Shown one piece after another: positions 3,526 to 45,198 of a stretch of DNA of 64,000 nucleotides. Source of the DNA: Patescibacteria group bacterium. GTDB lineage: Bacteria > Patescibacteriota > Doudnabacteria > UBA920. Where the stretch lies: assembly GCA_036726225.1 (NCBI GenBank), contig DAIMCS010000002.1, forward strand, positions 123,743-187,742. The letters are read 5' to 3'. The notes under the pieces were generated by a model. That model saw only the letters and a program-made list of their open reading frames with translations. It was not told the DNA's origin and searched no databases. The position numbers and the translations under genes were made by a program. Each line of letters begins with the position of its first letter. Within the stretch, counting starts at the first letter, position 1.

Positions 3526-3566
3526 AAAGCCCCGAATCCGCTATCTGGCAGACGGGGCTTTTTTAC
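3526..3566 (+). terminator. Rho-independent terminator after adhesin gene
   Basis: aaagccccg...cggggctttttt hairpin plus T-run. Confidence 0.7.
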
Positions 3567-4086
3567 TTGCGCAATTTCGGGGAAGTGCTATTATAAAAGT
3601 AAATCGGGCTTAAAATGCCCTACCAAACAGAGGTGGAAATGAAGGTAGCTCCGTACGGCCGAGAAAGAAATGACCGGAAAAAAGTTTTGTTGCTGAGTTT
3701 ATTGGTAACTTTTTGCCTACTGTTTACGGCCTGGCAACTTGCGCAAACTCGCGTATACAGAGAAAGACCAGGGGAGCAATTGCAACCACTGCCTTCCCCG
3801 CTGACGGTTCAATATGTTTGCGGGCAAAAAGGAGTTGTGTGCGTATGGGGGTAGCCCACTTAATCAAAAGGGGGGCCGTCGGTACAAACCTTCCGCCCCT
3901 TCCTCATCTTAACAAAACAAAAACCAACAGCTAGAAAGCTGTTTTTATTTTTACCAGCCAACCAATGACTAACCAATATCTTTTAGACCTAATTCATGAA
4001 GCAAACAACCGCGGCGGCGGTATGGTTTTAAATTTGGACGGACAGCCCCAAGTTGTCGTTTTGACTTTGGATCGGTATAATCAAAT

Positions 4087-5928: not shown

Positions 5929-7799
5929 GAATAACGCTTTCAAAATTTAGTAAATTAAAAAAAACGATTGCCATTTTTATGGTACTCATTTTTGTTTTTA
6001 TTCCCGAATTTTTGCCCACCAAAGCGGCTTTAGCCGGACAGGAAGCCGGGGGAACTTATATTATCAAACTTAAAGACACTAAAGATTACAGCCGGCTGCT
6101 TTTGGTTTCGGACTCAATTAAAAGGCGCTTTATCCAAAGTAAAAACATCCAATTTCAAAATATCTACACTTTTAATTCCAACTTAAGCCTTGCGGGTTTA
6201 AAAAATTTTTTAGCCGGTACGTATGAATACATTGAGCCCCAAAAAGTTTTACAGGTTTCTGAAGTTTTTGTAAATGACCCGGGTTTTACCCTCCAGGAGC
6301 AAAACGTCGATAAGCAGTGGGGTCTGGTTAAGGCCGGCTTTTCCCAAGCCTGGGCAAAAACCGTGGGCAGCGATGCAAATGTTGTTGCAATTATAGACAC
6401 AGGCATAGACGGGACCCACGAAGATTTACAAACTACAAATTTTGTATCCGGTTTTAATTTTATTTCCAACCAACCGATTGCGGCCGGACCAAACAATAAT
6501 TCGGACGACAACGGCCACGGCACTTTGGTTGCCGGCGTCCTGGGCGCGGCAACCAATAACGGCATGGGAGTTGCGGGAACTAACTGGGAAATTTCCCTAA
6601 TGGCCCTTAAAGCTTTGGATAAAGAGGGTAAAGGCGATGTTTCTGGCGTGGCTGAGGCAATTGTCTGGGCAACCGACCACGGCGCCCAGTTTGTAAATTT
6701 GAGCTTAGGCGGCATAGGTTTTGGCCACGACACGACTTTAGCCAACTCTATTAATTACGCCTTTAATAAAAACGTACTTATTGTCGCTGCCGCCGGTAAT
6801 GACACGGCAACAACGGGCAGTAACCTGGACCAGACGCCTGTTTTTCCGGTTTGTGACGACAATAATTTTAATATGATAATCGGCGTGGCGGCAACGGACC
6901 ATAATGATTTAAAACCCGCCTTCTCTAATTACGGTAAAAATTGCATAGATGTAACCGCACCCGGCAAAAGAATTTTATCTACAATTAATTTCGACCCGCT
7001 ATCCCAAAAGCCTTCGCCAAATTCTTATGCTTACGCTTCGGGAACTTCTTTGGCCGTGCCTTTTGTTGTAGGACAGGCCGCGCTTATAAAAGCCCTGTAC
7101 CCGCAAGCCACCAACATACAAATCCGCGACCGGATAATCGGCACGGCAGACACTATAGATAATTTAAACCTTATCCAGTGCGCAGGGGGTTCTTGTAGGG
7201 GGCTGGTCGGCGCGGGCAGGATTAATGTGTTTAGAAGTTTGCAAACAGAAATCCCTCTAGATTTTATTGAATGGGATATTGTGAAGGTCAACGATTTAAG
7301 CGGGGTGGTTTACCAAATTGTTGGCGGCCAAAAGAGGCTCATCTCCTCCTTTGTTTATAACCAGCGTTTTGCCAATTCCGAGTTTAAGACCGCCAATTTC
7401 GACCAGCTTGCCAACTTTCCCGAAGGCCCGTATGTAACGCCTCAAGATGGTACTTTAGTTAAATATGATACCAGCCCGACTGTTTACATAATGGACAAAG
7501 GGCAAAAGTTGCCCATAACCGCGCAGGTGTTTTTTCAAAGGAAACTTAGCTTTGCTGACGTTCGCACTTTAAGCGTTTCTGAACTCGACTCCTGGGCAAA
7601 AGGGAATTTTTACCCGCCGGCGGAAGGCACGCTGCTGAAAGCCGCAAAAAGCAAAACCGTCTATTGGGTGGTGGGTCAGGTACTACACCCTATAAATAAT
7701 ACATTCTATGCCGACAAGGGGCTAAAGGTTTTTCCTCTCATAACTTTTTCTGACGCGGATATTGCGAGTTTCCCCAAAGGCGAAGCTTATATTAGATAG
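5925..7799 (+). CDS. Secreted subtilisin-like serine protease (peptidase S8) with C-terminal ~55-aa repeat modules
   Basis: Signal/TM at N-terminus. Catalytic triad motifs AIIDTGID (Asp), HGTLVAG (His) and GTSLAVPFV (Ser). Three C-terminal repeats of the type DGTLVK..TVY.V..GQK.PI. Confidence 0.9.
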   Translation: MRITLSKFSKLKKTIAIFMVLIFVFIPEFLPTKAALAGQEAGGTYIIKLKDTKDYSRLLLVSDSIKRRFIQSKNIQFQNIYTFNSNLSLAGLKNFLAGTYEYIEPQKVLQVSEVFVNDPGFTLQEQNVDKQWGLVKAGFSQAWAKTVGSDANVVAIIDTGIDGTHEDLQTTNFVSGFNFISNQPIAAGPNNNSDDNGHGTLVAGVLGAATNNGMGVAGTNWEISLMALKALDKEGKGDVSGVAEAIVWATDHGAQFVNLSLGGIGFGHDTTLANSINYAFNKNVLIVAAAGNDTATTGSNLDQTPVFPVCDDNNFNMIIGVAATDHNDLKPAFSNYGKNCIDVTAPGKRILSTINFDPLSQKPSPNSYAYASGTSLAVPFVVGQAALIKALYPQATNIQIRDRIIGTADTIDNLNLIQCAGGSCRGLVGAGRINVFRSLQTEIPLDFIEWDIVKVNDLSGVVYQIVGGQKRLISSFVYNQRFANSEFKTANFDQLANFPEGPYVTPQDGTLVKYDTSPTVYIMDKGQKLPITAQVFFQRKLSFADVRTLSVSELDSWAKGNFYPPAEGTLLKAAKSKTVYWVVGQVLHPINNTFYADKGLKVFPLITFSDADIASFPKGEAYIR

Positions 7800-7842
7800 G
7801 AGTTTTAAAATAGGAGGTACAAAAAGCATTAAGAAAAAAAAT

Positions 7843-9699
7843 ATGCTCAAAAGAAAAATTTTAAAATTTATAAGCGCCGTAATATTATTCAGCTTCCCGC
7901 TGGCCGCGTTGGCTATGCCGGTTGACCCAAATTTTAACCCGGCCAAACTCATTGACGACAAAGTTTTTTCCGACATTCAAACTTTTGGCGGTCCGGAAGG
8001 CGTGCAGAAATTTTTGGAAAGTAAAAATTCGGTTTTGGCAAACACCTCCGCGGATTTTTTGGTTAAGCTCAAAGAGCCGCAGGCTACCCAACTAAAAGAA
8101 GGCCTGGAAGACCCGCAGCCAAATTTAGGCAGGCTTAGGACAGCTGCGGAGCTTATTTGGGACGCCTCCAGGCAAAGCGGGCTTAACCCCCAGGTACTCC
8201 TGGTGACTTTAAACAAAGAGCAGGGGTTAATTACTTCTGCCGGGGATTTTTCCCAAAGCCAGCTGCAAAAAGCTTTAGACAGATCTATGGGTTTTGATTG
8301 TCCGGACGGCGGAGGCTGCGGTAGTTTGTTTCCGGGTTTTTATTATCAATTATTTGGGAATTTTGACTCCGAAGGCAACCGTTATTTAGGCGCGGCCAAA
8401 TCTTTAATGAAATCTTTTACCACAGACGGCGGGCGGGGACCGATTATTGACGGGCGTACCGCAAAGGTAGGCGAGACAATAGTCTTGGGCAACACTTTAG
8501 GCGGCTATGAAAATATTTTGCCTTCGCAGTCGGTGTGGCTGACCAATAATGCAACCGCCGCGCTTTACCGGTATACTCCGCATGTTTTTAACGGCAATTA
8601 CAATTTTTGGAAATTTTTCCAGGCGTGGTTTAAATATCCCAACGGCACGCTGCTTAAAATGGCGAGCTCCGGGGAAACATACATTATCCAAAACGGACTT
8701 AAAGCTTTTGTCCCGCAATTCGTGGCAGCTGCCAGAGGGCTTGATTTAAACAGCACCGTTATAATTTCGCCTACGGAATACGAAAGTTATGTAACAGACA
8801 AGCCGTTGGGGCCGGAAAATAACACCATTGTGCAGCTGCCGGGCCAAAACGAGAAATACGTATTTATAGACAACGTCAGGCACTTGGCGTCAGATTTGGT
8901 AATTAAGCAAAGAGGTTTGGATCCTAAAAAAGTTTTGAGCATTTTGCCGGACGAAGCCGCAATTTTTGAAGCCGGCAGTGTTTTGCCTCCCAAAGACGGC
9001 ACAGTTATCCGCGGCACAACTAACCAGGCAGTATTTTTGGTTAAAGACGGCAAAATTAAAATGTTCAGCGCTTACACATTTGCCCAAAATAAAATTACCA
9101 AAAAAGATATTATAACTGTTCCGGATTCCGAAATTGGCACTTATTCCCAAAGCGGTTTTGTAGCACCGCTCGACGGCAGCCTGGTTAAATCGGCAAACGA
9201 TAGCACAGTTTATTTAGTCCAAAGCTCACTTAAGCAGCCGCTGCTCGGCGAGATTTTCAAGAACCGCGGCTTAAGCTTTAAAAAAGTGGCAATAATTTCA
9301 TCTGACGAGTTAAATGCTCTGCCTATGGGCGGGTTGGCTACGCCTAAAGAGCTTACCTACTTTGCTGCCGATTCAAAGACCGGGCCTTTGTATATTTTTA
9401 AAGAAGGTTCAGTGCACAGCATCTCCAGTTTTGTTGCCAAACAACGCGGCATTACCCCGGATTATATATTTAGCACCAGCGCAATAAATTTTTGGATTGT
9501 GGGAATTCCCATCCCGCCTAAAGACAACACCATTGTAAAAGGCGATACTGACAATACAGTCTATCTTGTTTTAAAAGGCCAGTTAAGGCCTTTAACCTAC
9601 CAAGCTTTCACCAACCGAAAAATTACGTCCAAGAAAATTGTGAGTTTGCCACAGGCCGAAGTTGACGCTTACGCCAAAGGGGAGATAATCACCAAGTAG
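7843..9699 (+). CDS. Secreted hypothetical protein with six C-terminal ~55-aa repeats of the same family as the S8 protease tail (ORF open from 7762)
   Basis: Signal peptide MLKRKILKFISAVILFSFPLAALA. Repeats DGTVIRGTTNQAVFLVKDGKIKMFS / DGSLVKSANDSTVYLVQSSLKQPL / DNTIVKGDTDNTVYLVLKGQLRPL. Confidence 0.75.
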   Translation: MLKRKILKFISAVILFSFPLAALAMPVDPNFNPAKLIDDKVFSDIQTFGGPEGVQKFLESKNSVLANTSADFLVKLKEPQATQLKEGLEDPQPNLGRLRTAAELIWDASRQSGLNPQVLLVTLNKEQGLITSAGDFSQSQLQKALDRSMGFDCPDGGGCGSLFPGFYYQLFGNFDSEGNRYLGAAKSLMKSFTTDGGRGPIIDGRTAKVGETIVLGNTLGGYENILPSQSVWLTNNATAALYRYTPHVFNGNYNFWKFFQAWFKYPNGTLLKMASSGETYIIQNGLKAFVPQFVAAARGLDLNSTVIISPTEYESYVTDKPLGPENNTIVQLPGQNEKYVFIDNVRHLASDLVIKQRGLDPKKVLSILPDEAAIFEAGSVLPPKDGTVIRGTTNQAVFLVKDGKIKMFSAYTFAQNKITKKDIITVPDSEIGTYSQSGFVAPLDGSLVKSANDSTVYLVQSSLKQPLLGEIFKNRGLSFKKVAIISSDELNALPMGGLATPKELTYFAADSKTGPLYIFKEGSVHSISSFVAKQRGITPDYIFSTSAINFWIVGIPIPPKDNTIVKGDTDNTVYLVLKGQLRPLTYQAFTNRKITSKKIVSLPQAEVDAYAKGEIITK

Positions 9700-29168: not shown

Positions 29169-29512
29169 TGCTTTAAGCAAACTCGTAAGCCGAATTCTGT
29201 TTCTAAATAATCATCTATCTGGTCACGTTATTGCTAACGTGATCAAGCAACCTACCTAATTTGGTCTTGCACTCAAGTAAGGATTTGGCCGTTTCACCTT
29301 TAATGTTTCCATCAAAGCTAATCTCTTGCGAGATCCTTGGCGTCTTTCGTACCAAGCGTCTCTGTTCGCACCTCTAGGATTACTCCCGACGGGAATTACC
29401 CGCTACCAGTTTTGATAACTCATATGAGGCTATCAAATAAGTGTTCGGACTTTCCTCCCCAACCGGCATCTTGCGATGCCAATTAAAGCGATTATTCGGT
29501 TTGCTTAAAGCC
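29169..29512 (-). ncRNA. rnpB: RNase P RNA, bacterial type A
   Basis: The minus-strand reading contains GGGGAGGAAAGTCCG (P4 / CR-I), AAAGGTGAAACGGCC (GGUGAAA region) and ACAGAATTCGGCTTACGAG (ACAGAAnCCGGCUUA, CR-V). The P1 stem is gctttaagcaaac / gtttgcttaaagc. Length ~344 nt. Confidence 0.85.
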
Positions 29513-31196: not shown

Positions 31197-32270
31197 ATGA
31201 GGATCGCATTAGCACATGATTCCCTTACTCAAATGGGCGGGGCGGAAAGAGTGGTAGATGCATTACACGAACTTTTTCCAAACGCGCCTGTTTTTACATT
31301 GGTCTTTGACCCAAAGTTTAAAGAAAAGTATAAAGATTGGGACATTCAAACTTCACCACTACAGTCGCTGTACTTGGTTTTAGGAAAACTGCAATATTGT
31401 TTGCCGCTAATCCCGTGGGCGGTGGACCAGCTAAACTTTAGCGGCTACGATTTAGTTATTTCCTCCAGCTCGGGTTTTGTAAAAAATATCCGTGTGCCAA
31501 AAAATTGTGTGCATATAAATTATTGTCACACCCCAACCAGATTTTTGTGGAGCGATAACGATTATGTCAAACAGGAAGTAAATTTTTTCCTAAGGCCTTT
31601 TGTAAAAGTTTTTTTATCTAAAATGCGGAAGTGGGATTTAATTGGCGCCAAAAGGGTAACGCATTTTATTGCCAATTCAAAAGAAGTCCAGGATAGAATC
31701 CAAAAATATTATCAGCGTACTAGTACGCTGATATACCCGTTTGTGGATTCAAAATTTTGGAATTCGACAACGCCTAAGGGCGATTACTTCTTACTTGCAG
31801 GCAGGCTACATCCCCATAAAAAAAATGACCTTATTGTGGAAGTTTTTAATGACCTAAATATCCCGCTCCACGTTGTGGGTACAGGGAGGCAAGAGGGTTA
31901 TTTGAAGTCGATTGCTAAGCAAAATATTAGCTTTTTGGGCAGAATAAGCGACGAAGCGCTTAGGGATGAGTATAGCGCTGCTTTAGGGTTTATTTACCCA
32001 CAAATTGAAGATTTTGGCCTTATGCCACTGGAAGCCGCCGGCTGCGGCACAGCCACACTGGCTTACGGTGAGGGCGGCGCTAAAGAGACTGTTCTGCCCG
32101 GGGTAACCGGGGAGCTGTTTGACTCTTACAATGAGGAGAAAATTAAGCAGATGGTTTTGTCTTGGGATGCAAAAAAATATCGAACGGATGACTTAAAAAA
32201 CCAGGCAGAGAAATTTAGTAAAGAAAAATTTAAAAGTGAAATGTTAAATTTTGTAAAATCCCATGTCTGA
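31197..32270 (+). CDS. Family 4 glycosyltransferase; contains the 22-bp palindrome ATCAGCGTACTAGTACGCTGAT at 31720-31741
   Basis: GT-B C-terminal motif LAGRLHPHKKNDL...EDFGLMPLEAAGCGTATLAYGEGGAKETV. Confidence 0.85.
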   Translation: MRIALAHDSLTQMGGAERVVDALHELFPNAPVFTLVFDPKFKEKYKDWDIQTSPLQSLYLVLGKLQYCLPLIPWAVDQLNFSGYDLVISSSSGFVKNIRVPKNCVHINYCHTPTRFLWSDNDYVKQEVNFFLRPFVKVFLSKMRKWDLIGAKRVTHFIANSKEVQDRIQKYYQRTSTLIYPFVDSKFWNSTTPKGDYFLLAGRLHPHKKNDLIVEVFNDLNIPLHVVGTGRQEGYLKSIAKQNISFLGRISDEALRDEYSAALGFIYPQIEDFGLMPLEAAGCGTATLAYGEGGAKETVLPGVTGELFDSYNEEKIKQMVLSWDAKKYRTDDLKNQAEKFSKEKFKSEMLNFVKSHV

Positions 32271-36683: not shown

Positions 36684-38135
36684 ATGCTGGAAACCGACCT
36701 GGAAAATATACTTTCAAAAGACGCCGCTAAAATTTATTTTGTCGGCATTGGCGGCATTGCTATGTCGGCCGCGGCAAACATTGCCGCTTCTTTTGGCTAT
36801 GAAATACAAGGTTCGGACAGCAAAGAAATTTACTCGCCTGCCAAGGACGTATTGGATGATTCTAAAATAAGTTATTTTAAAAGTTATTCCGAAGAAAACG
36901 TAAAAAATAGCAACGCAGATTTATTTGTGCTTTCTGCCGGGGAAGATTTAAACAATCCGGAAGTTAAATATATAGAAAAAAATAAATTACCTCACTTAGG
37001 CTTTCCCGAACTCATTTATTTTTTAACCAGGGATAAGCTAAGAGTGGTGGCCACGGGTACCCACGGCAAATCTACCACTACCGGCCTGCTCGGGCATATT
37101 TTTAAAAATCTAGACGACAGCTCCTTTATGGCCGGCGCTGTGCTGCAGAATTATTCCAGCAACTTTCATTTGGGCGTGGGCAACTATTTTGTCATTGAAG
37201 GCGACGAGTACAAGTCCGAATACGACGACCCCACGCCCAAATTCCATTATTACAAGGCTGACATTTTAGTTTTAACCAATTTGGAATATGACCACCCGGA
37301 CCTCTTCCCAAACTTTAAAGCCCTGGAAGATGAATTCCGCCACCTTATTGCCAATATGCCGCAAGACGGTCTAATTGTTTATAATGCCGACGATGTTAAT
37401 TTAAGCCGCCTGGTGCACGAGTCCAACGTCAGCAGCGCAAGTTATGGCATTGACAATGAGGCGGATTTTAGGGCAGAGCAAATTCAGTACGGGGAAGAGT
37501 TTACGACTATTGAAGTAATAAATAAATTTTCAAAAAATATTTCCAGCAAACTTTTGGGGCAAACTGAACAGTACAAAATTCAGCTGCCCGGAAAAATAAA
37601 CGTCTACAACGCGCTCGCGGCCATTGCGACGCTTCGTTCCTTAGGGTTTGCCCAGGACCAAATTGCCCTGGATTTACTTATTTATAAAGGCGTTAAAAGG
37701 CGTTTTGAAATTGTGGCAGTCAAAAAGGGGATTACAATTGTGGACGATTACGCCCATCACCCAACCGCAGTCAGGGAAACCCTTAACGCCGCGCGTTTAA
37801 AATTTCCAAAGTCAAAAATTTGGGCAATTTTTGAGCCACATACTTTTAGCCGCACAGAGGCAACATTGGAAGATTTAACCAAAAGCTTTGAAGGGGCCGA
37901 TGAAGTCTTAATTTCAGATATTTACCCGGCAAGAGAAAAGAAAACTAAGTCGTCAGTAACATCAGAACAAGTGGTGGAAGCGGTTAAACAAAACGCAAAA
38001 AATGCCAGGCTCATTCACAACAAAAAAGAAGCTTTGGAAATTTTGAAAAATGAAGTTAAGCCGGGCGAAGCCGTAATTATAATGGCCGTGGGCGATTTTA
38101 ACCGTTTGGCTTACGATTTAAAGGATATATTATAG
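36684..38135 (+). CDS. murC: UDP-N-acetylmuramate--L-alanine ligase
   Basis: KIYFVGIGGIAMSAAANIA, VATGTHGKSTTTGLL. Confidence 0.9.
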   Translation: MLETDLENILSKDAAKIYFVGIGGIAMSAAANIAASFGYEIQGSDSKEIYSPAKDVLDDSKISYFKSYSEENVKNSNADLFVLSAGEDLNNPEVKYIEKNKLPHLGFPELIYFLTRDKLRVVATGTHGKSTTTGLLGHIFKNLDDSSFMAGAVLQNYSSNFHLGVGNYFVIEGDEYKSEYDDPTPKFHYYKADILVLTNLEYDHPDLFPNFKALEDEFRHLIANMPQDGLIVYNADDVNLSRLVHESNVSSASYGIDNEADFRAEQIQYGEEFTTIEVINKFSKNISSKLLGQTEQYKIQLPGKINVYNALAAIATLRSLGFAQDQIALDLLIYKGVKRRFEIVAVKKGITIVDDYAHHPTAVRETLNAARLKFPKSKIWAIFEPHTFSRTEATLEDLTKSFEGADEVLISDIYPAREKKTKSSVTSEQVVEAVKQNAKNARLIHNKKEALEILKNEVKPGEAVIIMAVGDFNRLAYDLKDIL

Positions 38136-38136
38136 A

Positions 38137-39252
38137 ATGAAAATCCAGGAAAACGTTTTGCTAGCTCCATACACCACTTTTAAAATCGGCGGGCCGGCGA
38201 AGTTTTTTTGCATTGTAAACGACCAGTTCGATGCGCTTTCGGCCTATGACTTTGCGGACAAAAATCGGCTTAAAACCTTAGTTTTGGGCGGCGGAAGCAA
38301 TGTGTTAATTAGTGACAAAGGTTTTGACGGGCTTGTTTTAAAGGTGGAGAACAAGGGCATTGAAATTTTGTTTCAAAATGAAAATTTTGTAACCTTAAAA
38401 GTTGCTTCCGGTGAAAATTGGGATGAAGTTGTAAAATTTGCGGTAAAAAATAACTGGTGGGGGATTGAAAATCTTTCCCACATTCCCGGCTCCAGCGGGG
38501 CCATTGCCGTACAAAATGTTGGCGCTTACGGACAGGAAGCTAAAAATGTAATTGAATCGGTTGTGGTTTTTAACAAAGCCACTCACGAAATACAAAATTT
38601 GCAAACTCAAGATTGCCACTTTGCTTACCGCTCCAGTATTTTTAACGCCAGCCGCAAAGGTAATTTTATTATTTTTTATATTGTTTTTAAATTGTCCAAG
38701 ATGGCAAAACCTATTTTGTCTTACCGTGATCTGAAAAAGTACTTTCAGCTTTCAGAAACCCTCTCTGCCCCGGCTGTGCCGGGGCATCTCCCCCAAAAGG
38801 GGGAGAATAATAATGTATTATCGCTTGAAAAAATTCGCGAGGCGATAATCTATATACGTGACAAAAAATTCCCCTTTCCCACAGAGGCAAAAAAAGGGAA
38901 TGCCGGGTCATTTTTTAAGAATCCTGTTTTAAGTAAAGAACAATATAACGTGCTTAAAGAAACTCTTGATGTAAATTTTGGCACTCAAAAAGTTGCGGAG
39001 CTGGAAACAAAGCAATTTGTGGAAGAGGAAAAAATTAAAGTTCCGGCCGCTTTTTTAATAGACCTTTGCGGCTTAAAAGATCTGCAAGTCGGAGGCGCAG
39101 CAATTAACGCAAACCAGCCTTTGGTAATTGTAAATGAAAGCGGCACTGCGAGCGCACAAGACGTGCTTAGTTTGGCAAACAGGGTAAAAGCAGAGGTTAA
39201 AAATAAAACCGGTATTGAACTAATGTTTGAACCGGAGTTGATTGGTTTTTAA
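38137..39252 (+). CDS. murB: UDP-N-acetylenolpyruvoylglucosamine reductase carrying an in-frame twin-hairpin insertion
   Basis: FAD-binding N-terminus TTFKIGGPAKFFCIV...LVLGGGSNVLISDKGFDG. Insert ...APAVPGHLPQKGENNNV... at 38767-38815. Confidence 0.88.
   Translation: MKIQENVLLAPYTTFKIGGPAKFFCIVNDQFDALSAYDFADKNRLKTLVLGGGSNVLISDKGFDGLVLKVENKGIEILFQNENFVTLKVASGENWDEVVKFAVKNNWWGIENLSHIPGSSGAIAVQNVGAYGQEAKNVIESVVVFNKATHEIQNLQTQDCHFAYRSSIFNASRKGNFIIFYIVFKLSKMAKPILSYRDLKKYFQLSETLSAPAVPGHLPQKGENNNVLSLEKIREAIIYIRDKKFPFPTEAKKGNAGSFFKNPVLSKEQYNVLKETLDVNFGTQKVAELETKQFVEEEKIKVPAAFLIDLCGLKDLQVGGAAINANQPLVIVNESGTASAQDVLSLANRVKAEVKNKTGIELMFEPELIGF
38767..38815. repeat. Twin-hairpin mini-element (gccccggctgtgccggggc + tctcccccaaaagggggaga + ATAATAATG) in frame inside murB
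   Basis: Same architecture at 49744-49795 (upstream of secD) and single G5/C5 hairpins at 46849-46869 (in pepN) and 52264-52291 (secF terminator). Confidence 0.75.
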
Positions 39253-39406
39253 AAATTTGGTATAGTTTAAATGTGCAAAGAACAAAAATAATGAAAGCGC
39301 TAATAATTTTTGCAATTCTATTAATCCTAAGTTTTATAATATTTGTTTTGTATCAGCTGACTGTCGTTGGAGATTCATTTCTTAAAGGTTCTCAATTTTA
39401 GATAAT

Positions 39407-39727
39407 ATGAACATAAACATCAAAGCGACAAACACTACATTAACTCCGTCTATTAGGGGCTTTATTGAAGAAAAACTGGAAAGCTTGGCAAAATTTATTA
39501 AAGAAGAAGACAAAATCCGCGTAGAAATAGAAGTGGACAAAAAACGCACTGGTGAGGCTCGTTTTAGGGCGGAAATAGACATTCAACCCCGCGGGCATTA
39601 CGCAGAGGCAAGGGGAGTGGATGAATACGCGGCAATAGATTTAGTTTTGCCAAAAATTAAAGAGCAGCTAACCCGAAAAAAGGACAAGGAAGTCAGCCTA
39701 AGAAGGAGAAGAACAAAGCTTAGGTAA
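39407..39727 (+). CDS. hpf: Ribosome hibernation promoting factor / ribosome-associated inhibitor A
   Basis: [35 protein letters not shown]...VEIEVD...[26 protein letters not shown]. Confidence 0.85.
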
Positions 39728-39743
39728 TAAGGGATAATTTACT

Positions 39744-39772
39744 TGACAAAGCCAGTTTTAGGATATAAAATA
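39744..39772 (+). promoter_or_regulatory. Canonical sigma70-type promoter TTGACA-N17-TAAAAT at the left edge of the GC-rich islet
   Basis: ttacTTGACAaagccagttttaggataTAAAAT. Confidence 0.55.
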
Positions 39773-39785
39773 ATTTTAGTGAAAA

Positions 39786-39935
39786 AAATACTCAAAATTT
39801 CTAATGGGATTGGTTTTTGGTTTTATTTTACTCCGGCAGTTGAGCCCGGAAATTTTGAGTTGATTACCAAGTAGTTTTGTAAAATAATCGACTTTAAATC
39901 TCCGGCCTCAACGAGGCCGGTTTTGTTTTTTGCAG
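39786..39935 (+). ncRNA. Candidate structured leader or small RNA (promoter to intrinsic terminator, ~150 nt) upstream of the strong-SD Cys-rich ORF
   Basis: Long-range complementarity actcaaaatttc / gaaattttgagt. Terminal hairpin ccggcctcaacgaggccgg plus T7 at 39902-39933. The RBS of the next ORF lies 40 nt downstream. Confidence 0.35.
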
Positions 39936-39986
39936 TTTTCCAAATCGCTGTGTGGATGTGAGCAAAACAAGCAAGGAGGATTGATT

Positions 39987-40259
39987 ATGGCTAACCCGTT
40001 CGATTGGCATGGAACAAGCCGCGATATGTGCGGACAAGTTTGTTATATCTTTGAAGTCAAAAACCTGTCGGGACTTCGGAAGAAAAAAAGAAGGCGTAAG
40101 CCCGCGACTTACCTCATTAAAGCCAGGACCGAAATTGGCACGAATATAAAGTTTTACTGTCGGCTTACAGCTGGCCAATGGAAAGTCTGGAGAGTTCCTA
40201 GAGGGATGCCAAACCCAAAACGGCAAGTATCTCGTGTTTCCTTTGGTGACAGCCGTTGA
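39987..40259 (+). CDS. Small basic Cys-containing hypothetical protein (90 aa)
   Basis: AGGAGG 8 nt upstream of the ATG; perfect terminator hairpin agcaggaagcgaatttacattcgcttcctgc at 40268-40298; GC and codon use differ from the surrounding genes. Confidence 0.55.
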   Translation: MANPFDWHGTSRDMCGQVCYIFEVKNLSGLRKKKRRRKPATYLIKARTEIGTNIKFYCRLTAGQWKVWRVPRGMPNPKRQVSRVSFGDSR

Positions 40260-40409
40260 AAGTGCCTAGCAGGAAGCGAATTTACATTCGCTTCCTGCGT
40301 CACAATACTAATTACTTTTTTATGAGAACAATAAACTCAAAATTATATATTTCCATTTGGTGGGTTTTGCAATTCCCGCAAAGCCGTCTTTAAGCGTGTT
40401 TAGTTACAA

Positions 40410-40446
40410 AAACATCCCGACGGCCGTCGGGATGTTTTTGTTTTGG
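40410..40446. terminator. Terminator hairpin, followed by a 15-bp palindrome GATTGTCAAACAATC (40455-40469, -35/operator-like)
   Basis: aaaacatcccgacggccgtcgggatgtttttgtttt. Confidence 0.65.
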
Positions 40447-40506
40447 CTTTTGATTGTCAAACAATCGAGAGCCAGCACAAAAGCTGGAGAAGGCAGGAGG
40501 AATATT

Positions 40507-40878
40507 ATGTCAGAGGAGATCGTCCGTTGGTGTTTTGTTCAGTTGGTATATGAGCGTTTTGTAAGACAGTTAATGGATGCCGAGGAAGAAGAAAGATTTA
40601 CAATCCATCTTTCCAGGTGTGCTTTATGCCGAAATGCCGTGGAGCAGACAGATGAGGAGCTGGCGCAAGCCAAGCTTGAAGCCGGAGAAAAAAAAGTACG
40701 CTTGCTCATTCGGCAAATTGGCAGAACGAAACACAACATGAGGAAAGTTCGCGCAATCAACGGTAAAAGGGTCTTAAAAAACAACGAAGCTAGAGAGCGA
40801 CAGATTAAAATAATGGAAGGACAACTGCTTGAAGCGGAGGCAAATATTTTTGCTTTGAGATGTAAGTATTTGCCATGA
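40507..40878 (+). CDS. Hypothetical coiled-coil protein (123 aa; ORF track start 40357 lies inside a terminator, so the AGGAGG-served ATG at 40507 is used)
   Basis: ggcAGGAGGaatattATG; terminator aagacagg...ccctgtcttatttttt after the stop. Confidence 0.55.
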   Translation: MSEEIVRWCFVQLVYERFVRQLMDAEEEERFTIHLSRCALCRNAVEQTDEELAQAKLEAGEKKVRLLIRQIGRTKHNMRKVRAINGKRVLKNNEARERQIKIMEGQLLEAEANIFALRCKYLP

Positions 40879-40910
40879 TCTCAACTAATAAGACAGGATT
40901 TGTCCCTGTC

Positions 40911-41204
40911 TTATTTTTTGTAATATTTTTTCCAAATAGTATTAAAGCCGCCGTTTTTGTTAAGCAGTTCTTTCACGCCTCTGTTTATGGTTGCCACTCC
41001 TACTTTTAGGCGTTTGGCAATTTCGCGATGGGGGATTTTTGCTTTAAGCATTTTAACTATTTGCCAGCGTACCGCCATTTCAGAATATTCTGCATGCGAA
41101 AGCAGATCGAACAAAAATTCGCGTAAAAGTTTTTTATCCCGCTCTTTTGAAATTTTACCAATAAGCTCCTCCAGCTCTACTCCGTATTCGTGTTTATACT
41201 TCAT
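40911..41204 (-). CDS. TrpR-like YerC/YecD family DNA-binding protein
   Basis: 97 aa, ...EMAVRWQIVKMLKAKIPHREIAKRLKVGVATINRGVKEL... helix-turn-helix typical of YerC/YecD. Confidence 0.65.
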   Translation of the reverse strand: MKYKHEYGVELEELIGKISKERDKKLLREFLFDLLSHAEYSEMAVRWQIVKMLKAKIPHREIAKRLKVGVATINRGVKELLNKNGGFNTIWKKYYKK

Positions 41205-41217
41205 TTTGTATTGCGTG

Positions 41218-41322
41218 TTAGCGTACTAGTACAGTAGCACGCAGCAGGGTTTTATTTCAAGCTGTGGATAAAAATTATTAAAATAAATAAAATTCGATGT
41301 TTCAGCGTACTAGTACGCTATT
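41218..41322. promoter_or_regulatory. Divergent control region with two copies of the palindromic core AGCGTACTAGTAC(GCT)
   Basis: gttAGCGTACTAGTACagtagcacgc (41218-41243) and ttCAGCGTACTAGTACGCTattgac (41303-41327). A perfect 22-bp version lies inside the GT4 gene at 31720-31741. Confidence 0.5.
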
Positions 41323-41394
41323 GACTAAAGGAATTGGTTCAATGTACGCTAAGTGAAGTTCGTGCAAAAAAATACACCAGTAAGGAGGAAGTAA

Positions 41395-41604
41395 GTGACG
41401 CAGGAAGCTGCTCGTTTGGATACTTGCCCTCAAGGAACATCTTTTTGCTATTGGATGGAACAAAAATCCAGGAGCGTTGAAGGCTCGGTGATTGTGTTTT
41501 GTTCCACCTGTGACAAGGCCAGATGCAAAGAATGCTGGAAACCGGCGGTCCAAGTTGAGGGAACTGACAAATACCGGTGTCCGGACTTATGTAAGGCAAG
41601 CTAG
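41395..41604 (+). CDS. Small Cys-rich (8 Cys) hypothetical protein, GTG start
   Basis: AAGGAGG 7 nt upstream; CxxxxxxC...CxxC...CxxC...CxxxC pattern; two terminator hairpins downstream (41618-41640; 41655-41712). Confidence 0.5.
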   Translation: MTQEAARLDTCPQGTSFCYWMEQKSRSVEGSVIVFCSTCDKARCKECWKPAVQVEGTDKYRCPDLCKAS

Positions 41605-41726
41605 CGGCAAAATCGCCCGGGCTGAGAGCAATCTCAGCCTGTCTTTTATTTGAAAATAAAAATAACCGTGAACGGAATGCAAGCAGTTGGCTGCTCTTTT
41701 CCGTTCACGGTTTTTGCTTTTGGGCT

Positions 41727-41953
41727 TTAGGGTTTTGCTTTCCTGATGGGAGCCAGGAGGAACTTTATGTCGGTCTCCTCGCCCTCAATTTTGTAGCGCT
41801 TGGCTTGTTTAGTCCGGAGACTTGTAATGGCCACACCTTTTTTGTAAAACTGTGCCGCCTTGCCGGTCTTTAGGTCGTGCCTTGTAAATTTTGATCCGCC
41901 TTTGATCAAAACCCGTGTGGCTATCGATGAGGTCACTAGCCGTTCAATTACCA
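41727..41953 (-). CDS. Small basic hypothetical protein (75 aa; strong-SD start MVIERL)
   Basis: gaAGGAGGGct ATG on the minus strand; the ORF-track N-terminal extension lacks an RBS. Confidence 0.5.
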
Positions 41954-42088
41954 TAGCCCTCCTTCTTAAGTTTGGGAACACAATGATGCTAACTTTACCA
42001 TAGGTACTTTTAGTTGTAAATAAAAAAACCGCCTTAAGCGGGAAGAACAGGGACGCAAGAGGGGTGCCTCTTGCGTCCCTTACATGGT

Positions 42089-42292
42089 TTAGGCTTCAAC
42101 TAAGCATTCCCAGCGTTTTGGGCCCGAAATTTTGTATATCCAATTGCAATCGGACCATACTGCTGTGAGAAATCGTCCGTCGGCAAGTACTACCGAACCT
42201 TCTGTGTTCTGGGCCCCTTTTAGGGTCTCCTGGGTAACGCCCGCAATTTCCAGGGCTTGGAATCGTTTAATCCAGGTCGAATCGTCGTCCAT
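42089..42292 (-). CDS. Small hypothetical protein (67 aa)
   Basis: ORF with downstream terminator hairpin gggacgcaagaggggtgcctcttgcgtccc (42043-42072); weak RBS. Confidence 0.35.
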   Translation of the reverse strand: MDDDSTWIKRFQALEIAGVTQETLKGAQNTEGSVVLADGRFLTAVWSDCNWIYKISGPKRWECLVEA

Positions 42293-42474
42293 AATTACCT
42301 CGTGGGATTGGGGTTATGTGGTGTTTCGTCGCCTTAGCTATGGCATCCTCCTTCAAAGCGCACTCTACCAAAAATTGCCTTTTTAGGCAAGGTTTTAAGC
42401 TTTTCAGGCAGGGCTTTTTTTGTTATAATCAAACAGTTATCCAGTACTGCCTATAGACTATTTACTACTAATTT

Positions 42475-45198
42475 ATGTCTTTTTTAAGCAATTTATTTAG
42501 CGGACAAAAGAACCCTTTGGACAGGTTTTCCAAAGAGCTTTTGGAAGTTAACAGTTACAGGGAAGAAGTGGAAAAGCTCACACAGGAGCAAATGAGAAAA
42601 GAAGTGACAAGTTACAAGTCACAAGTAACAAGTTTAGAAACTGACAAAGAGATTTTTTTAAAGCTTCAGCAAATTGCTCCCAGGGTTTTTGCCCTAATCC
42701 GCGAAGCCGCAAAAAGGTCCATTGGCCAGTTCCATTACGACGTCCAGCTCGCCGGCGGTTTTGTTTTGTCCAGCGGGAAAATTGCTGAAATGAAAACCGG
42801 AGAAGGAAAAACTCTAACTGCGACTTTGCCGCTCGGGCTTTTTGCGCTTGCAGGCAAAGGCGCGCATTTGGTCACAGTAAACGACTATTTAGCCAGGTGG
42901 CAAGCCTCTCTTATGGGCCCGGTTTTCCATTATCTTGGACTTTCTACTTCATCCATTCAGCACGAAGCCTCGTTTTTGTACGACTCAAGCTACCAGCCAG
43001 AACAGGAAGAAATTACCAAGCTCGAAGGCGAGACCCAGGGTTTGGTAATGGATGTAAAACATATGCGGCCGGTTAAACGCAAAGAAGCCTACGCCGCGGA
43101 TATAACTTACGGCACCAACAACGAATATGGCTTTGACTATTTGCGCGACAATATGGCGCAAAACGTTTCGCAAATAGTTCAGCGCGAATTGTTTTTTGCA
43201 ATTGTCGACGAAGTTGACTCTATTTTAATAGATGAAGCGCGTACCCCTCTTATCATTAGCATGCCGGACGCAGAGCCAACCAGCAAGTATTACGATTTTG
43301 CCAAATTAGTTGAGCGGTTAGACGAAAGCACAGACTATATAGTTGACGAAAAGCACAAATCAGCATCGCTGACCGATGCGGGCATTAATAAAATTGAAAG
43401 CATTTTAAAAGTGCCGAACATTTACGACACTTCCAAAGGCGTTACTACCATCCACCATATTGAACAGGCTTTAAGGGCCAGGACTTTGTTTAAAAAAGAC
43501 AGGGACTATGTGGTGCGTGAAGGCGAAATTATTATTGTAGACGAATTTACCGGGCGTTTAATGTTTGGCCGCAGGTATTCAGAAGGACTGCACCAGGCAA
43601 TTGAGGCAAAAGAAAACGTAAAAATCCAGCAGGAAAGCAAAACCCTTGCCACCATAACCTTCCAAAATTTATTTAGGCTTTACAAAAAACTTTCGGGTAT
43701 GACCGGAACGGCCAAAACCGAGGAAGAGGAGTTCTTTAAAATTTATCAGCTTACAGTTGAGCAAATCCCAACCCATAGGCCAATGGTAAGGGCAGACGGC
43801 GCGGATATGATTTATAAAACTGAGGAAGCCAAGTTTAAAGCTATTGCAAAAGAAGTAAAAGAACGCCACAAAAAAGGCCAGCCGGTTTTAATTGGTACGG
43901 TAAGCATTGCCAAAAACGAAATGCTGGCAGAAGTTTTAAAGAGCGAAGGGCTGACTTTTGAAATTTTAAACGCTAAAAACCACGAACGTGAGGCGCATAT
44001 TATTTCCCAGGCCGGCCGCTTGGGGCAAATTACTTTGGCCACTAACATTGCCGGTCGCGGTGTGGACATTTTGCTCGGCGGCAACCCCATAGACCAGCAG
44101 GAGGCCAAAGCTGTGCGAGATGCGGGTGGTCTGCACATTTTGGGCACGGAGCGCCACGAATCGCGCCGTATAGACAACCAGCTTCGCGGGCGCGCCGGCC
44201 GTCAGGGTGACCCGGGGTCTTCGCAGTTTTTTGTTTCTATGGAAGATGACCTTATGCGCCTTTTTGGCGGCGAGCGGATGAAGTCCTTAATGACCACTTT
44301 GGGCCTGCCGGACGACCAGCCAATTGAAGCAAAATTGGTTTCGCGGTCTATTGAGTCTGCGCAAAAGAAAATTGAAGGCTTAAACTTTGACACCAGAAAA
44401 CACGTGCTTGAATTTGACGACGTATTAAACCACCAGCGCAACGTAATTTACAAAAGGCGCCGCGCGTTTTTGGCAGACACAGAAGAAAGCAAACAGGGGG
44501 ATTTGAAAAAAGAAATTTTGGAAATGGTGGAAAAGGAAATTGGGGAGCTGGTGACAACTAATTTAAATGCGTTAGACGAACTTGGCAATAAAAAAGAGGA
44601 CTGGGATAATTTGTTTAAAACTGCAAACAGCATAATTCCTGTTGATCAGAATCTTATTGCTAAAATAAAAGAAGAAGCAAAAAATGCGGCAGACAGGGAA
44701 TTTGCAGTTGCCGATGTGCTATATAAAGCAGCGGCTGATTTTTGGGAAAAGAAAGAGCAGGAAATGGGCAGGGAGGTTTTTGAAGGCGCGCAACGGTTTG
44801 TGGCTTTGCAGTCTTTAGACAACCTTTGGATGGAGCATTTGGACACTATGGACCATTTGCGCGACTCGGTAAGGCTCCGCGGCTATGGCCAAAGGGATCC
44901 GCTTGTTGAGTACAAAAAAGAAGGGCATTTAATGTTCCAGCGTTTGACCGCAGAAATAAACAAGCAAATTGTCTTTACTATTTTCCACATAAGTGTCCAA
45001 GCCAAGCCACAGCAACAGGTCCAGCCAATGAATTTGAATTTATCGAGTCAATCAGCGAATCAGTCAATCAGCGAATCAGCTGATAAAAGTGTGGGCAGAA
45101 ACGAGCCTTGCCCCTGCGGCAGCGGGAAGAAATGGAAAAAATGCGGGATGATAAATTCCCAAGAACATCAAACGAATATATCTAAAACTAATCACTAA
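42475..45198 (+). CDS. secA: Preprotein translocase ATPase SecA
   Basis: DVQLAGGFVL, MKTGEGKTLTATLP (Walker A), DEVDSILIDEARTPLIIS; C-terminal zinc motif CPCGSGKKWKKCG. Confidence 0.95.
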   Translation: MSFLSNLFSGQKNPLDRFSKELLEVNSYREEVEKLTQEQMRKEVTSYKSQVTSLETDKEIFLKLQQIAPRVFALIREAAKRSIGQFHYDVQLAGGFVLSSGKIAEMKTGEGKTLTATLPLGLFALAGKGAHLVTVNDYLARWQASLMGPVFHYLGLSTSSIQHEASFLYDSSYQPEQEEITKLEGETQGLVMDVKHMRPVKRKEAYAADITYGTNNEYGFDYLRDNMAQNVSQIVQRELFFAIVDEVDSILIDEARTPLIISMPDAEPTSKYYDFAKLVERLDESTDYIVDEKHKSASLTDAGINKIESILKVPNIYDTSKGVTTIHHIEQALRARTLFKKDRDYVVREGEIIIVDEFTGRLMFGRRYSEGLHQAIEAKENVKIQQESKTLATITFQNLFRLYKKLSGMTGTAKTEEEEFFKIYQLTVEQIPTHRPMVRADGADMIYKTEEAKFKAIAKEVKERHKKGQPVLIGTVSIAKNEMLAEVLKSEGLTFEILNAKNHEREAHIISQAGRLGQITLATNIAGRGVDILLGGNPIDQQEAKAVRDAGGLHILGTERHESRRIDNQLRGRAGRQGDPGSSQFFVSMEDDLMRLFGGERMKSLMTTLGLPDDQPIEAKLVSRSIESAQKKIEGLNFDTRKHVLEFDDVLNHQRNVIYKRRRAFLADTEESKQGDLKKEILEMVEKEIGELVTTNLNALDELGNKKEDWDNLFKTANSIIPVDQNLIAKIKEEAKNAADREFAVADVLYKAAADFWEKKEQEMGREVFEGAQRFVALQSLDNLWMEHLDTMDHLRDSVRLRGYGQRDPLVEYKKEGHLMFQRLTAEINKQIVFTIFHISVQAKPQQQVQPMNLNLSSQSANQSISESADKSVGRNEPCPCGSGKKWKKCGMINSQEHQTNISKTNH

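Follow-up and report, generated by a model that had tools for sequence, protein, structure and literature searches.

An aromatic-codon leader in a Doudnabacteria-like genome, a probable ribosome-mediated transcription attenuator

The 64,000-nucleotide stretch of Patescibacteria DNA analysed here (positions 123,743 to 187,742 of contig DAIMCS010000002.1, hereafter the window) carries a short leader unit between hpf and an orphan open reading frame (ORF) of 90 amino acids, orf90. The unit is very probably a ribosome-mediated leader-peptide transcription attenuator of the trp/phe type. It has a leader ORF with a cluster of regulatory codons (F-W-F-Y-F, a run of this kind being present in 16 of 16 members of the family), overlapping and exclusive helices 1:2, 2:3 and 3:4 in all members, and a 3:4 intrinsic terminator upstream of an ORF led by a Shine-Dalgarno (SD) sequence. 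The codon run and the stop codon are placed so that a terminating ribosome would block the 2:3 helix. The four-segment arrangement is that of the E. coli trp and phe attenuators. The elements, their mutually exclusive pairing, the energies, the conservation and covariation, and the coding signature of the run were all observed directly. The strongest evidence against a chance arrangement is the conservation of the unit, 16 homologues of which were found in Doudnabacteria-like and other metagenomic contigs.

Elements of the leader and their competing pairings

All elements of the unit are on the forward strand and are given in window positions. The sigma-70-type promoter (39743-39771) consists of TTGACA at 39743-39748, a 17-nt spacer and TAAAAT at 39766-39771; it matches the consensus at 11 of 12 positions and is the top-scoring site across 38500-42500. 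Seven nt past the -10 box, and without an SD sequence, a small leader-peptide ORF (sORF) begins with GTG at 39779 and extends over 31 codons, (M)KKILKISNGIGFWFYFTPAVEPGNFELITK, to the TAG at 39874. The sORF is probably leaderless, that is, the 5' end of the mRNA would be at the GTG or adjoin it. Its regulatory codon run, TTT TGG TTT TAT TTT (39815-39829), encodes F W F Y F and is followed by the Thr codon ACT.

Segment 1 (ACUCAAAAUUUC, 39790-39801) is the 5' arm of the 1:2 helix, and it lies directly 5' of the aromatic codons and extends into them. The core of this helix is a 12-bp perfect inverted repeat, ACTCAAAATTTC at 39790-39801 with GAAATTTTGAGT at 39849-39860. Segment 2 (GUUGAGCCCGGAAAUUUUGAGUUGAUU, 39839-39865) can have either segment 1 or segment 3 as its partner. 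Segment 3 (AAUCGACUUUAAAUCUCCGGCCUCAAC, 39886-39912) forms the anti-terminator when paired with segment 2, and towards its 3' end it also supplies the 5' arm of the terminator. The terminator hairpin, CCGGCCTC-AAC-GAGGCCGG at 39902-39920, has 8 bp, 7 of them G-C, and the T-run TTTTGTTTTTT comes right after it at 39921-39931; the complete 3:4 element (39902-39931) is composed of the stem CCGGCCUC/GAGGCCGG, the loop AAC and then UUUUGUUUUUU. Segment 2 has a conserved core of 25 nt, and the stop codon of the sORF lies 8 nt past this core and 14 nt ahead of segment 3.

The minimum free energy (MFE) of the 157-nt leader is -45.9 kcal/mol (z = -3.9), lower than that of 200 out of 200 dinucleotide shuffles. 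The MFE fold skips the 12-bp helix and uses a longer one, 39839-39865 with 39886-39912, which spans 27 positions. The 5' arm of this 2:3 helix overlaps the 3' arm of the 12-bp helix, and its 3' arm overlaps the 5' arm of the terminator, so the 1:2, 2:3 and 3:4 pairings are mutually exclusive.

An earlier note on this DNA had described a TTGACA-N17-TAAAAT promoter, a 12-bp long-range helix and a strong intrinsic terminator at 39786-39935. All three are present, the promoter being outside that interval. The note had also proposed to look for an alternative anti-terminator fold and for conservation in related loci, and both were found, the former as the 2:3 helix and the latter as the homologous units. 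The sORF at 39779-39874 and the second long helix, 39839-39865/39886-39912, are features that the note did not have.

Homologous units in related loci

With nhmmer, the unit was found in one copy per locus, with E-values from 1e-23 to 1e-40 in 15 other loci, and blastn gave 74-88% identity over the core in three relatives. Ten contigs that encode the 90-aa protein represent one organism, as they are 100% identical except for one at 97% (locus L008). Scanning metagenome contigs for the pattern GTTGAGNNNNRAAATTTTGAGTTG gave 26 loci, of which 11 were new true members and one was L011 again; the remaining loci were rejected as chance matches, since all other features of the unit are absent from them. 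Eight further loci anchored on TrpR yielded one divergent member, L049 (GCA_016197215.1, nhmmer E 4e-19), and the other seven have no unit within the retrieved DNA. No second copy of the aromatic leader was detected in the 64-kb window by blastn and nhmmer.

The consensus of the family is ACUCAAAAUUU(C/U) for segment 1, GUUGAGnnnnGAAAUUUUGAGUUGA, which is nearly invariant, for segment 2, and UC(A/G)ACUnnnnnnnnnCCnnnCUCAAC for segment 3. The spacer between segments 2 and 3 is variable and contains the stop codon. A promoter TTGACA-N16/17-TAnAAT is found at the matching distance from the sORF start in 12 of the 14 full-length homologues. In all 14 full-length members a -10-like hexamer precedes the start codon by 6-10 nt (7 nt in ten of them), and the nucleotides in between are A/T-rich and lack an SD sequence. 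The start is in frame with the aromatic run in 14 of 14, and it is an ATG except in the window and L008, which have GTG. Across the family the sORF is 24-34 codons long.

The aromatic run is in frame in every one of the 16 members. It comprises 5-7 codons and changes its length in steps of +3 or +6 nt, and the variants are FWFYF, FYFYF, FSFYFYF, FSFFFYF, WYFFYF, FWYYF, FGFWYYF, FWYFYF and FWFFFYF. Substitutions inside it are either synonymous (TTT/TTC, TAT/TAC) or swap F, Y and W for one another. A Thr codon follows the run in 15 members, as ACT, ACG, ACC or ACA, and in L049 it is Ser AGC. From the start codon to segment 2 the distance is 45, 48, 51 or 60 nt, a multiple of three, in 13 of 14 members. 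In the strain variant L008 the stretch from the GTG to the run is set apart from that of the window by substitutions and an in-frame indel of 9 nt; the GTG itself is the same, and the peptide reads MKKLTQKFGFWFYFT, as in the rest of the family.

Outside the run the reading frame is not kept in the same way. Segment 1 of the window is in a different frame from that of the relatives, and its nucleotides are conserved nonetheless. In L036 a frame shift before segment 2 puts the stop codon of the ORF inside this segment, and again the nucleotides of segment 2 are kept. These frame changes imply that the segments are constrained as RNA. It appears that only the aromatic run is constrained as codons or as peptide, and the sORF, judging from this coding signature, would be translated.

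The three competing helices were found in all 16 members. MAFFT and RNAalifold gave no consensus for the terminators because of indels, and per-sequence folds were used instead; in these the energies are -11 to -26 kcal/mol for 1:2, -18 to -31 kcal/mol for 2:3 and -9.5 to -17 kcal/mol for 3:4. Among the 14 members that have segment 1, 13 favour the combination of 1:2 and 3:4 over 2:3, and when segment 1 is masked, 2:3 is more stable than 3:4 alone in 15 of 15. The 2:3 helix is also much stronger than the one formed with a shuffled segment 3, with z-values between -3.9 and -11.

A whole-leader MAFFT alignment misplaced segment 1, and the helix counts were therefore taken on ungapped segment alignments. 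In that of the 15 distinct sequences, 84.4% of the cells of the 2:3 helix are standard pairs, a share that falls to 23-51% once the partner is shifted by 1-3 columns. Both sides have changed in five pairs; in the divergent L049, U-A has become C-G at two positions, turning GUUGAG/CUCAAC into GCCGAG/CUCGGC. None of 500 shuffles matched the paired fraction and two of 500 matched the covariation score.

Every member has a terminator, a G+C-rich hairpin of 6-14 bp followed by 4-7 consecutive U. The stems vary in both length and sequence (CCUC/GAGG, CCCC/GGGG, CCUU/AAGG, AGCUC/GAGCU, UCUCA/UGAGA, CCUCGGC/GCCGAGG), yet the hairpin forms in all of them. The geometry around segment 2 is also confined: the aromatic run directly adjoins and overlaps segment 1, segment 2 begins 21-30 nt after the start of the first aromatic codon and 11-15 nt after that of the last, and the stop codon falls between -3 and +29 nt relative to the end of the segment 2 core and, in every member, 7-27 nt ahead of segment 3.

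Mechanism and alternative explanations

From this arrangement we infer the transcription start, the leaderless translation, the stalling on aromatic codons and the regulatory outcome. Transcription would start about 7 nt past the -10 box, with the 5' end of the mRNA at or near the GTG and leaderless initiation. The ribosome would then traverse segment 1, the Phe-Trp-Phe-Tyr-Phe run and segment 2. When charged Phe-, Tyr- and Trp-tRNA are ample, a ribosome moving on to the stop codon would cover segment 2, and a ribosome finishing the peptide would sit on or just past this segment while segments 3 and 4 are synthesised. If no ribosome is loaded, segment 2 would be paired with segment 1. In both cases the 3:4 terminator should form and transcription end near 39931, which would be the default. 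A ribosome stalled on the aromatic run would instead, at most of its codons, occupy segment 1 and leave segment 2 free, and the 27-position 2:3 helix could then capture the 5' arm of the terminator, letting transcription proceed through the SD-led small ORF and further.

What is sensed is most probably how much aromatic aminoacyl-tRNA is available, a point on which our confidence is lower than for the attenuator mechanism as such. The bacterium probably obtains its aromatic amino acids from outside. In the window and in L036 the unit plausibly also terminates transcripts that come from hpf, a side role that would not account for its conservation elsewhere.

Several observations weigh against this interpretation. 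A run that mixes three amino acids, with an occasional Ser or Gly, also fits a conserved aromatic peptide motif. The Rfam family RF01859, Phe_leader, the one hit of a permissive scan that is related in theme, scores 16.4 bits (E = 7.4, 39799-39926) where its gathering threshold is 55, so the unit does not belong to it. The unconstrained MFE fold of the window contains 2:3, which means that termination by default hinges on the order of co-transcriptional folding. Segments 1 and 2 vary so little that compensatory changes are missing from the 1:2 helix, and its support is conservation independent of the reading frame. The GTG with which the sORF of the window opens is a poor leaderless initiator in E. 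coli (PMC4633059). Where transcription starts, that initiation is leaderless in this phylum, and that transcription is terminated are all predictions from the sequence. Finally, the genes behind the leader encode orphan small proteins and not functions in aromatic biosynthesis or tRNA charging, and the physiological logic is therefore not evident.

Two other explanations concern the peptide. It is conceivable that F-W-F-Y-F-T is a nascent-peptide sensor which arrests in the exit tunnel, possibly sensing a ligand as TnaC does or secretion as SecM does, while the RNA switch stays the same; stalling would in that case not report the charging of tRNA. The mixed F/W/Y motif without a run of any single codon, the Thr that comes next in 15 of 16 members (Ser in L049), the position of the unit 600-1600 nt upstream of secA in six Doudnabacteria loci, and regulated genes that are not amino-acid genes would all suit such a sensor. 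The motif varies in length and order, however (FWFYF, FSFYFYF, FSFFFYF, WYFFYF, FGFWYYF), which is unusual for arrest peptides, and conserved residues with a constant spacing to a stall site are lacking. Towards the C-terminus the peptide is not conserved, as L036 illustrates, and secA has its own promoter in the window and is separated from the unit by a terminator in other loci. We consider arrest by the peptide unlikely. An ordinary gene for a small protein, with the aromatic peptide of about 30 aa as its product (a membrane micropeptide or a toxin) and the helices as incidental, is rather improbable as well. Promoter, ORF and terminator do make a complete gene, and a hydrophobic, aromatic peptide is kept in 16 loci, but merely 5-7 residues are conserved as peptide, and the frames of the N-terminal part (window compared with L008 and the relatives) and of the C-terminal part (L036) change while the nucleotides are conserved. 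Nor would such a gene account for a 2:3 helix with compensatory changes that takes a terminator arm, or for the SD-led ORF in the same direction that always follows 15-71 nt further on.

The earlier note had favoured a riboswitch or attenuator, with a small RNA (sRNA) as another candidate. Attenuation is the part that stands. The sequence of promoter, structured leader, terminator and gene, together with the terminator/anti-terminator alternatives, is indeed what a metabolite-binding riboswitch with a terminator as expression platform would show. No family in Rfam fits the unit, neither at the gathering thresholds nor at a permissive E-value of up to 10 (window and 10 related loci); the best forward-strand hits are noise, and RAGATH-19, CRISPR-DR and miRNA matches were discarded as sub-threshold. 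There is no multi-helix junction or conserved unpaired pocket that could serve as an aptamer, and the conserved 'loop' of the 12-bp helix is the Phe/Trp/Tyr codon run of what appears to be a translated sORF, with whole-codon indels and synonymous changes. Transcription would also begin at the start codon, which leaves no space for an untranslated aptamer, and we regard a riboswitch as extremely improbable. The same scan of the related loci gave a borderline DUF3800-II RNA in L011 (5836-5901, reverse strand, 43.6 bits against 43.2). Very unlikely, too, is that the unit is a trans-acting sRNA or no more than the site where the upstream hpf transcript is terminated. Termination would yield a separate RNA of about 150 nt, and hpf, which ends at 39727, has no terminator of its own before 39902, so that read-through from hpf would end here. 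In most relatives, however, the unit is away from hpf, on the other side of trpR or, in a second clade, in a different context, and it has a conserved promoter of its own; everything observed can be explained without a stand-alone trans-acting sRNA.

For the attenuator, which we prefer, the closest counterparts are the E. coli leaders pheL (of pheA) and pheM (of pheST). These are short ORFs with Phe codons, where the family here has ..FWFYFT.. or ..FSFFFYFT.., and they share the 1:2, 2:3 and 3:4 alternatives ending in an intrinsic terminator, with read-through upon a stall. In contrast to pheL and pheM, the run mixes Phe, Tyr and Trp, the sORF lacks an SD sequence and is apparently leaderless, the genes behind it are orphans and not pheA or pheST, the organisms belong to the Candidate Phyla Radiation (CPR, or Patescibacteria) and not to the Gammaproteobacteria, and similarity in sequence or to the covariance model is absent (16.4 against 55 bits). 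Runs of Phe codons in pheL leaders are documented (PMC3082878). The likeness to E. coli trpL and TrpR lies in the four-segment logic, and at these loci there are also GTACTAGTAC operators, a gene of the TrpR family and a second leader whose Trp codons stand in tandem; in L036, trpB-trpA are found downstream. Unlike trpL, the leader is aromatic (F/W/Y) and not WW, its promoter has no operator, and in the window it is orphans that stand behind it.

In mycobacteria, leaderless sORFs function as amino-acid-sensing attenuators, and a 5' ATG or GTG suffices for leaderless initiation (10.1101/834739; PMC4633059). The polycysteine sORFs described there resemble our unit in a run of codons of one class and, if the predicted transcription start is right, in the 5' AUG/GUG start; a stalled ribosome remodels the downstream RNA and switches the operon on, which is proposed here likewise. 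They differ in that they unmask a ribosome-binding site (RBS) and so act on translation, whereas the intrinsic terminator in our case should act on transcription, and the amino acids and the phylum are also different. With TnaC, SecM and MifM the unit shares the principle that the translation status of an upstream short ORF governs downstream expression, and secA is near at several loci. Aromatic residues matter in TnaC and SecM. An arrest motif with fixed spacing is absent here, the peptide outside the run is not conserved, and control would be exerted through a terminator and an anti-terminator instead of Rho access or RBS unmasking.

Leader-peptide attenuation is textbook knowledge in Proteobacteria and is known in a few other phyla. 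In the literature searched we found no report of it in CPR/Patescibacteria, where regulation is almost unstudied because the organisms are rarely cultured. The mechanism is an already known one; from the classical cases the family departs in its phylum, in an sORF that is apparently leaderless, in a run that mixes aromatic residues and in an orphan cargo exchanged in the manner of a cassette. The aromatic leader, together with the Trp leader and the TrpR operators, offers a sequence-defined handle on amino-acid sensing in a reduced and probably symbiotic bacterium, and it points to orphan small proteins as the output of this sensing. Unannotated leaderless sORFs may thus carry regulation in CPR genomes.

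Downstream genes, the tryptophan leader and the surroundings

The cistron which the leader would regulate (39973-40259, forward strand) has the RBS AAGGAGG at 39973-39979 and consists of orf90, from ATG 39987 to TGA 40259. The RBS and the gene were correctly pointed out earlier, and the spacing is about 55 nt past the T-run and not 40. The label Cys-rich given to orf90 does not hold, as the protein has merely 3 Cys. No homologues of orf90 exist among 5.8 billion clustered proteins, where a word-indexed search returned orf90 itself, and an exhaustive HMMER search of 1.84 billion representatives gave only low-complexity matches to its KKKRRRK stretch. The suggestion that homologous leaders might be found upstream of orf90 orthologs was not borne out, since orf90 has no homologues and the unit is not tied to it. 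The next ORF, orf123 (40507-40878), is likewise an orphan.

At all 15 loci examined, an SD-led ORF on the same strand follows the T-run by 15-71 nt, and where the contig is complete it encodes 60-113 aa; in L049 the leader is also followed by an ORF, led by GAGGAGG. The first cistron is an orphan at every locus, and trpB-trpA are found further downstream only in L036, behind the second leader described below. Pfam gave no match at threshold for ten of the downstream small ORFs, only weak zinc-ribbon hints, and zinc-ribbon-like CxxC...CxxC motifs are present in the cargo ORFs of L012, L027, L030, L035 and L042. Between most loci no similarity of the first ORF can be detected. In L029 and L042 the leaders are 92% and the regions after the ORF 88% identical, while the ORF in between has no detectable similarity; the cargo ORF is likewise replaced between L011 and L021 and between L012 and L027, the flanks being 75-92% identical over the three pairs. 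Comparison of these sequences suggests that more than divergence is at work and that the cargo ORF is exchanged as a cassette while the regulatory frame stays fixed. The cargo ORFs of L030 and L035 are homologous, with a dN/dS of 0.86 and the Cys motif retained. The units of the second clade end with their own terminator; the AbrB-like/MacAB-like operon that comes next is under a promoter of its own.

A structured motif is found after the small ORF in L012 (11610-11700), L027 (about 3551-3640), L029 (5743-5830), L030, L035 and L042. It reads GGGCGAGGAAUUU-[variable hairpin]-AUUUUCCUGGCyCU-loop-rGrGCCAAU, shows apparent covariation in two hairpins and has no match in Rfam; it may be a further regulatory RNA. 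In L012, L029, L035 and L042 it is followed by an SD-led Trp mini-ORF (MSKVWF, MNEVWF, MRVWL, MNTAWSFDGDWT) and then a terminator, and in L030 a CUGGUUUUAA remnant and the terminator are retained, the SD and the start codon being gone. We tentatively imagine a chassis in a subset of the CPR, with the aromatic attenuator in front, the structured RNA, the Trp mini-ORF and the terminator at the back, and zinc-ribbon-like cargo swapped in between; tRNA charging would be a read-out of host nutrients that switches diversifying effectors or regulators. If this doubtful scheme were true, host-dependent bacteria unable to make aromatics would switch small effectors or regulators and not a biosynthetic pathway.

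Other small structures are found near the cargo ORFs. In the read-through part of the leader most members have two small hairpins, e.g. GUUUGCCUGGAAUCCCGGGCAAAC in L028 and GGCGCAAnUUGCGCC in L012, L029 and L042. One of them uses the GUUUG that ends the T-run, the other is directly 5' of the SD and has compensatory changes, and they may affect the translation or the stability of the read-through mRNA. A perfect 13-bp hairpin, GCAGGAAGCGAAT/ATTCGCTTCCTGC at 40269-40298, comes right after the orf90 stop codon in the window and lacks a T-run.

A second leader-peptide unit (40322-40441, forward strand) precedes orf123. Its sORF, MRTINSKLYISIWWVLQFPQSRL at 40322-40393, has tandem Trp codons at 40358-40363, and a GGUUUUGC/GCAAAGCC hairpin is followed by a terminator with an 18-bp perfect stem (40406-40441). 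The 5' end of this leader repeats segment 1 of the aromatic leader, and the whole looks like a trp-type attenuator. Homologous S-x-W-W leaders are found in L012, L015, L016, L027 and L036; the one in L036 is upstream of trpB-trpA and the one in L012 upstream of a trpB2-like gene.

The window has three GTACTAGTAC palindromes (41223-41232, 41307-41316 and 31717-31726), where 0.44 would be expected, and we take these to resemble the operator half-sites of E. coli TrpR. Two fall between orf69 and the divergently oriented TrpR-family gene, one of these adjoining a TTGACT -35 box; centred on the third, within a glycosyltransferase gene, is a perfect palindrome of 18 bp, CAGCGTACTAGTACGCTG. In L012, L015, L016 and L027 the TrpR-type operator motif GTACTAGTAC abuts the -35 box of the WW leader. 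That a Trp leader with a terminator and an operator occur at the same loci makes it plausible that the lineage uses attenuation. The ORF orf69 (41395-41604, forward strand, terminator at 41618-41641) is divergent from trpR and has the operator-bearing promoter; it encodes 69 aa with 9 Cys, belongs to no known family, has the SD AAGGAGG and is the genuinely Cys-rich small ORF of this neighbourhood. Near the TrpR-family gene or the leaders in some relatives are genes of the Trp pathway (L054 1301-3404, L036 4479-6429, L012 9328-10635, L021 89-775), namely anthranilate synthase components (Chorismate_bind, GATase), trpB-trpA and a trpB2-like gene, which means that Trp is synthesised or salvaged in at least some of the lineage.

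The genome records closest to the window's MurB are 'Candidatus Doudnabacteria' metagenome-assembled genomes, with 55-65% identity, and the window belongs to a CPR bacterium. The gene order in the window is murC (36684-38135), murB (38137-39252), a 42-aa ORF, hpf, encoding an S30AE ribosome hibernation factor (39407-39727), the aromatic leader unit, orf90, orf123, the TrpR-family gene (40911-41204, reverse strand), further orphan ORFs and secA (42475-45198). The TrpR-family gene is thus placed between the aromatic leader and secA, which has its own promoter-like site. In six Doudnabacteria loci the next conserved gene past the unit is secA, at a distance of 600-1600 nt, and a terminator separates the two in other loci. 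At the gathering thresholds the only Rfam hit in the window is a bacterial RNase P class A RNA at 29170-29507 on the reverse strand (122 bits).

Only L036 has the arrangement of the window. In five relatives (L011, L012, L013, L015 and L016) hpf and trpR are convergent, 80-370 nt apart and with a shared hairpin. The leader is absent from this syntenic spacer in all five, as is the whole 1.2-kb block 39730-40910 with the aromatic leader, orf90, the WW leader and orf123, and in three of them the aromatic leader is instead situated between trpR and secA. The spacer in L012 (about 7830-7880) and in L016 (about 7600-7660) contains a common hairpin motif, GTCATCCnGGAnTTTTT...TCCGGGATCCAG, which may be a small repeated element.

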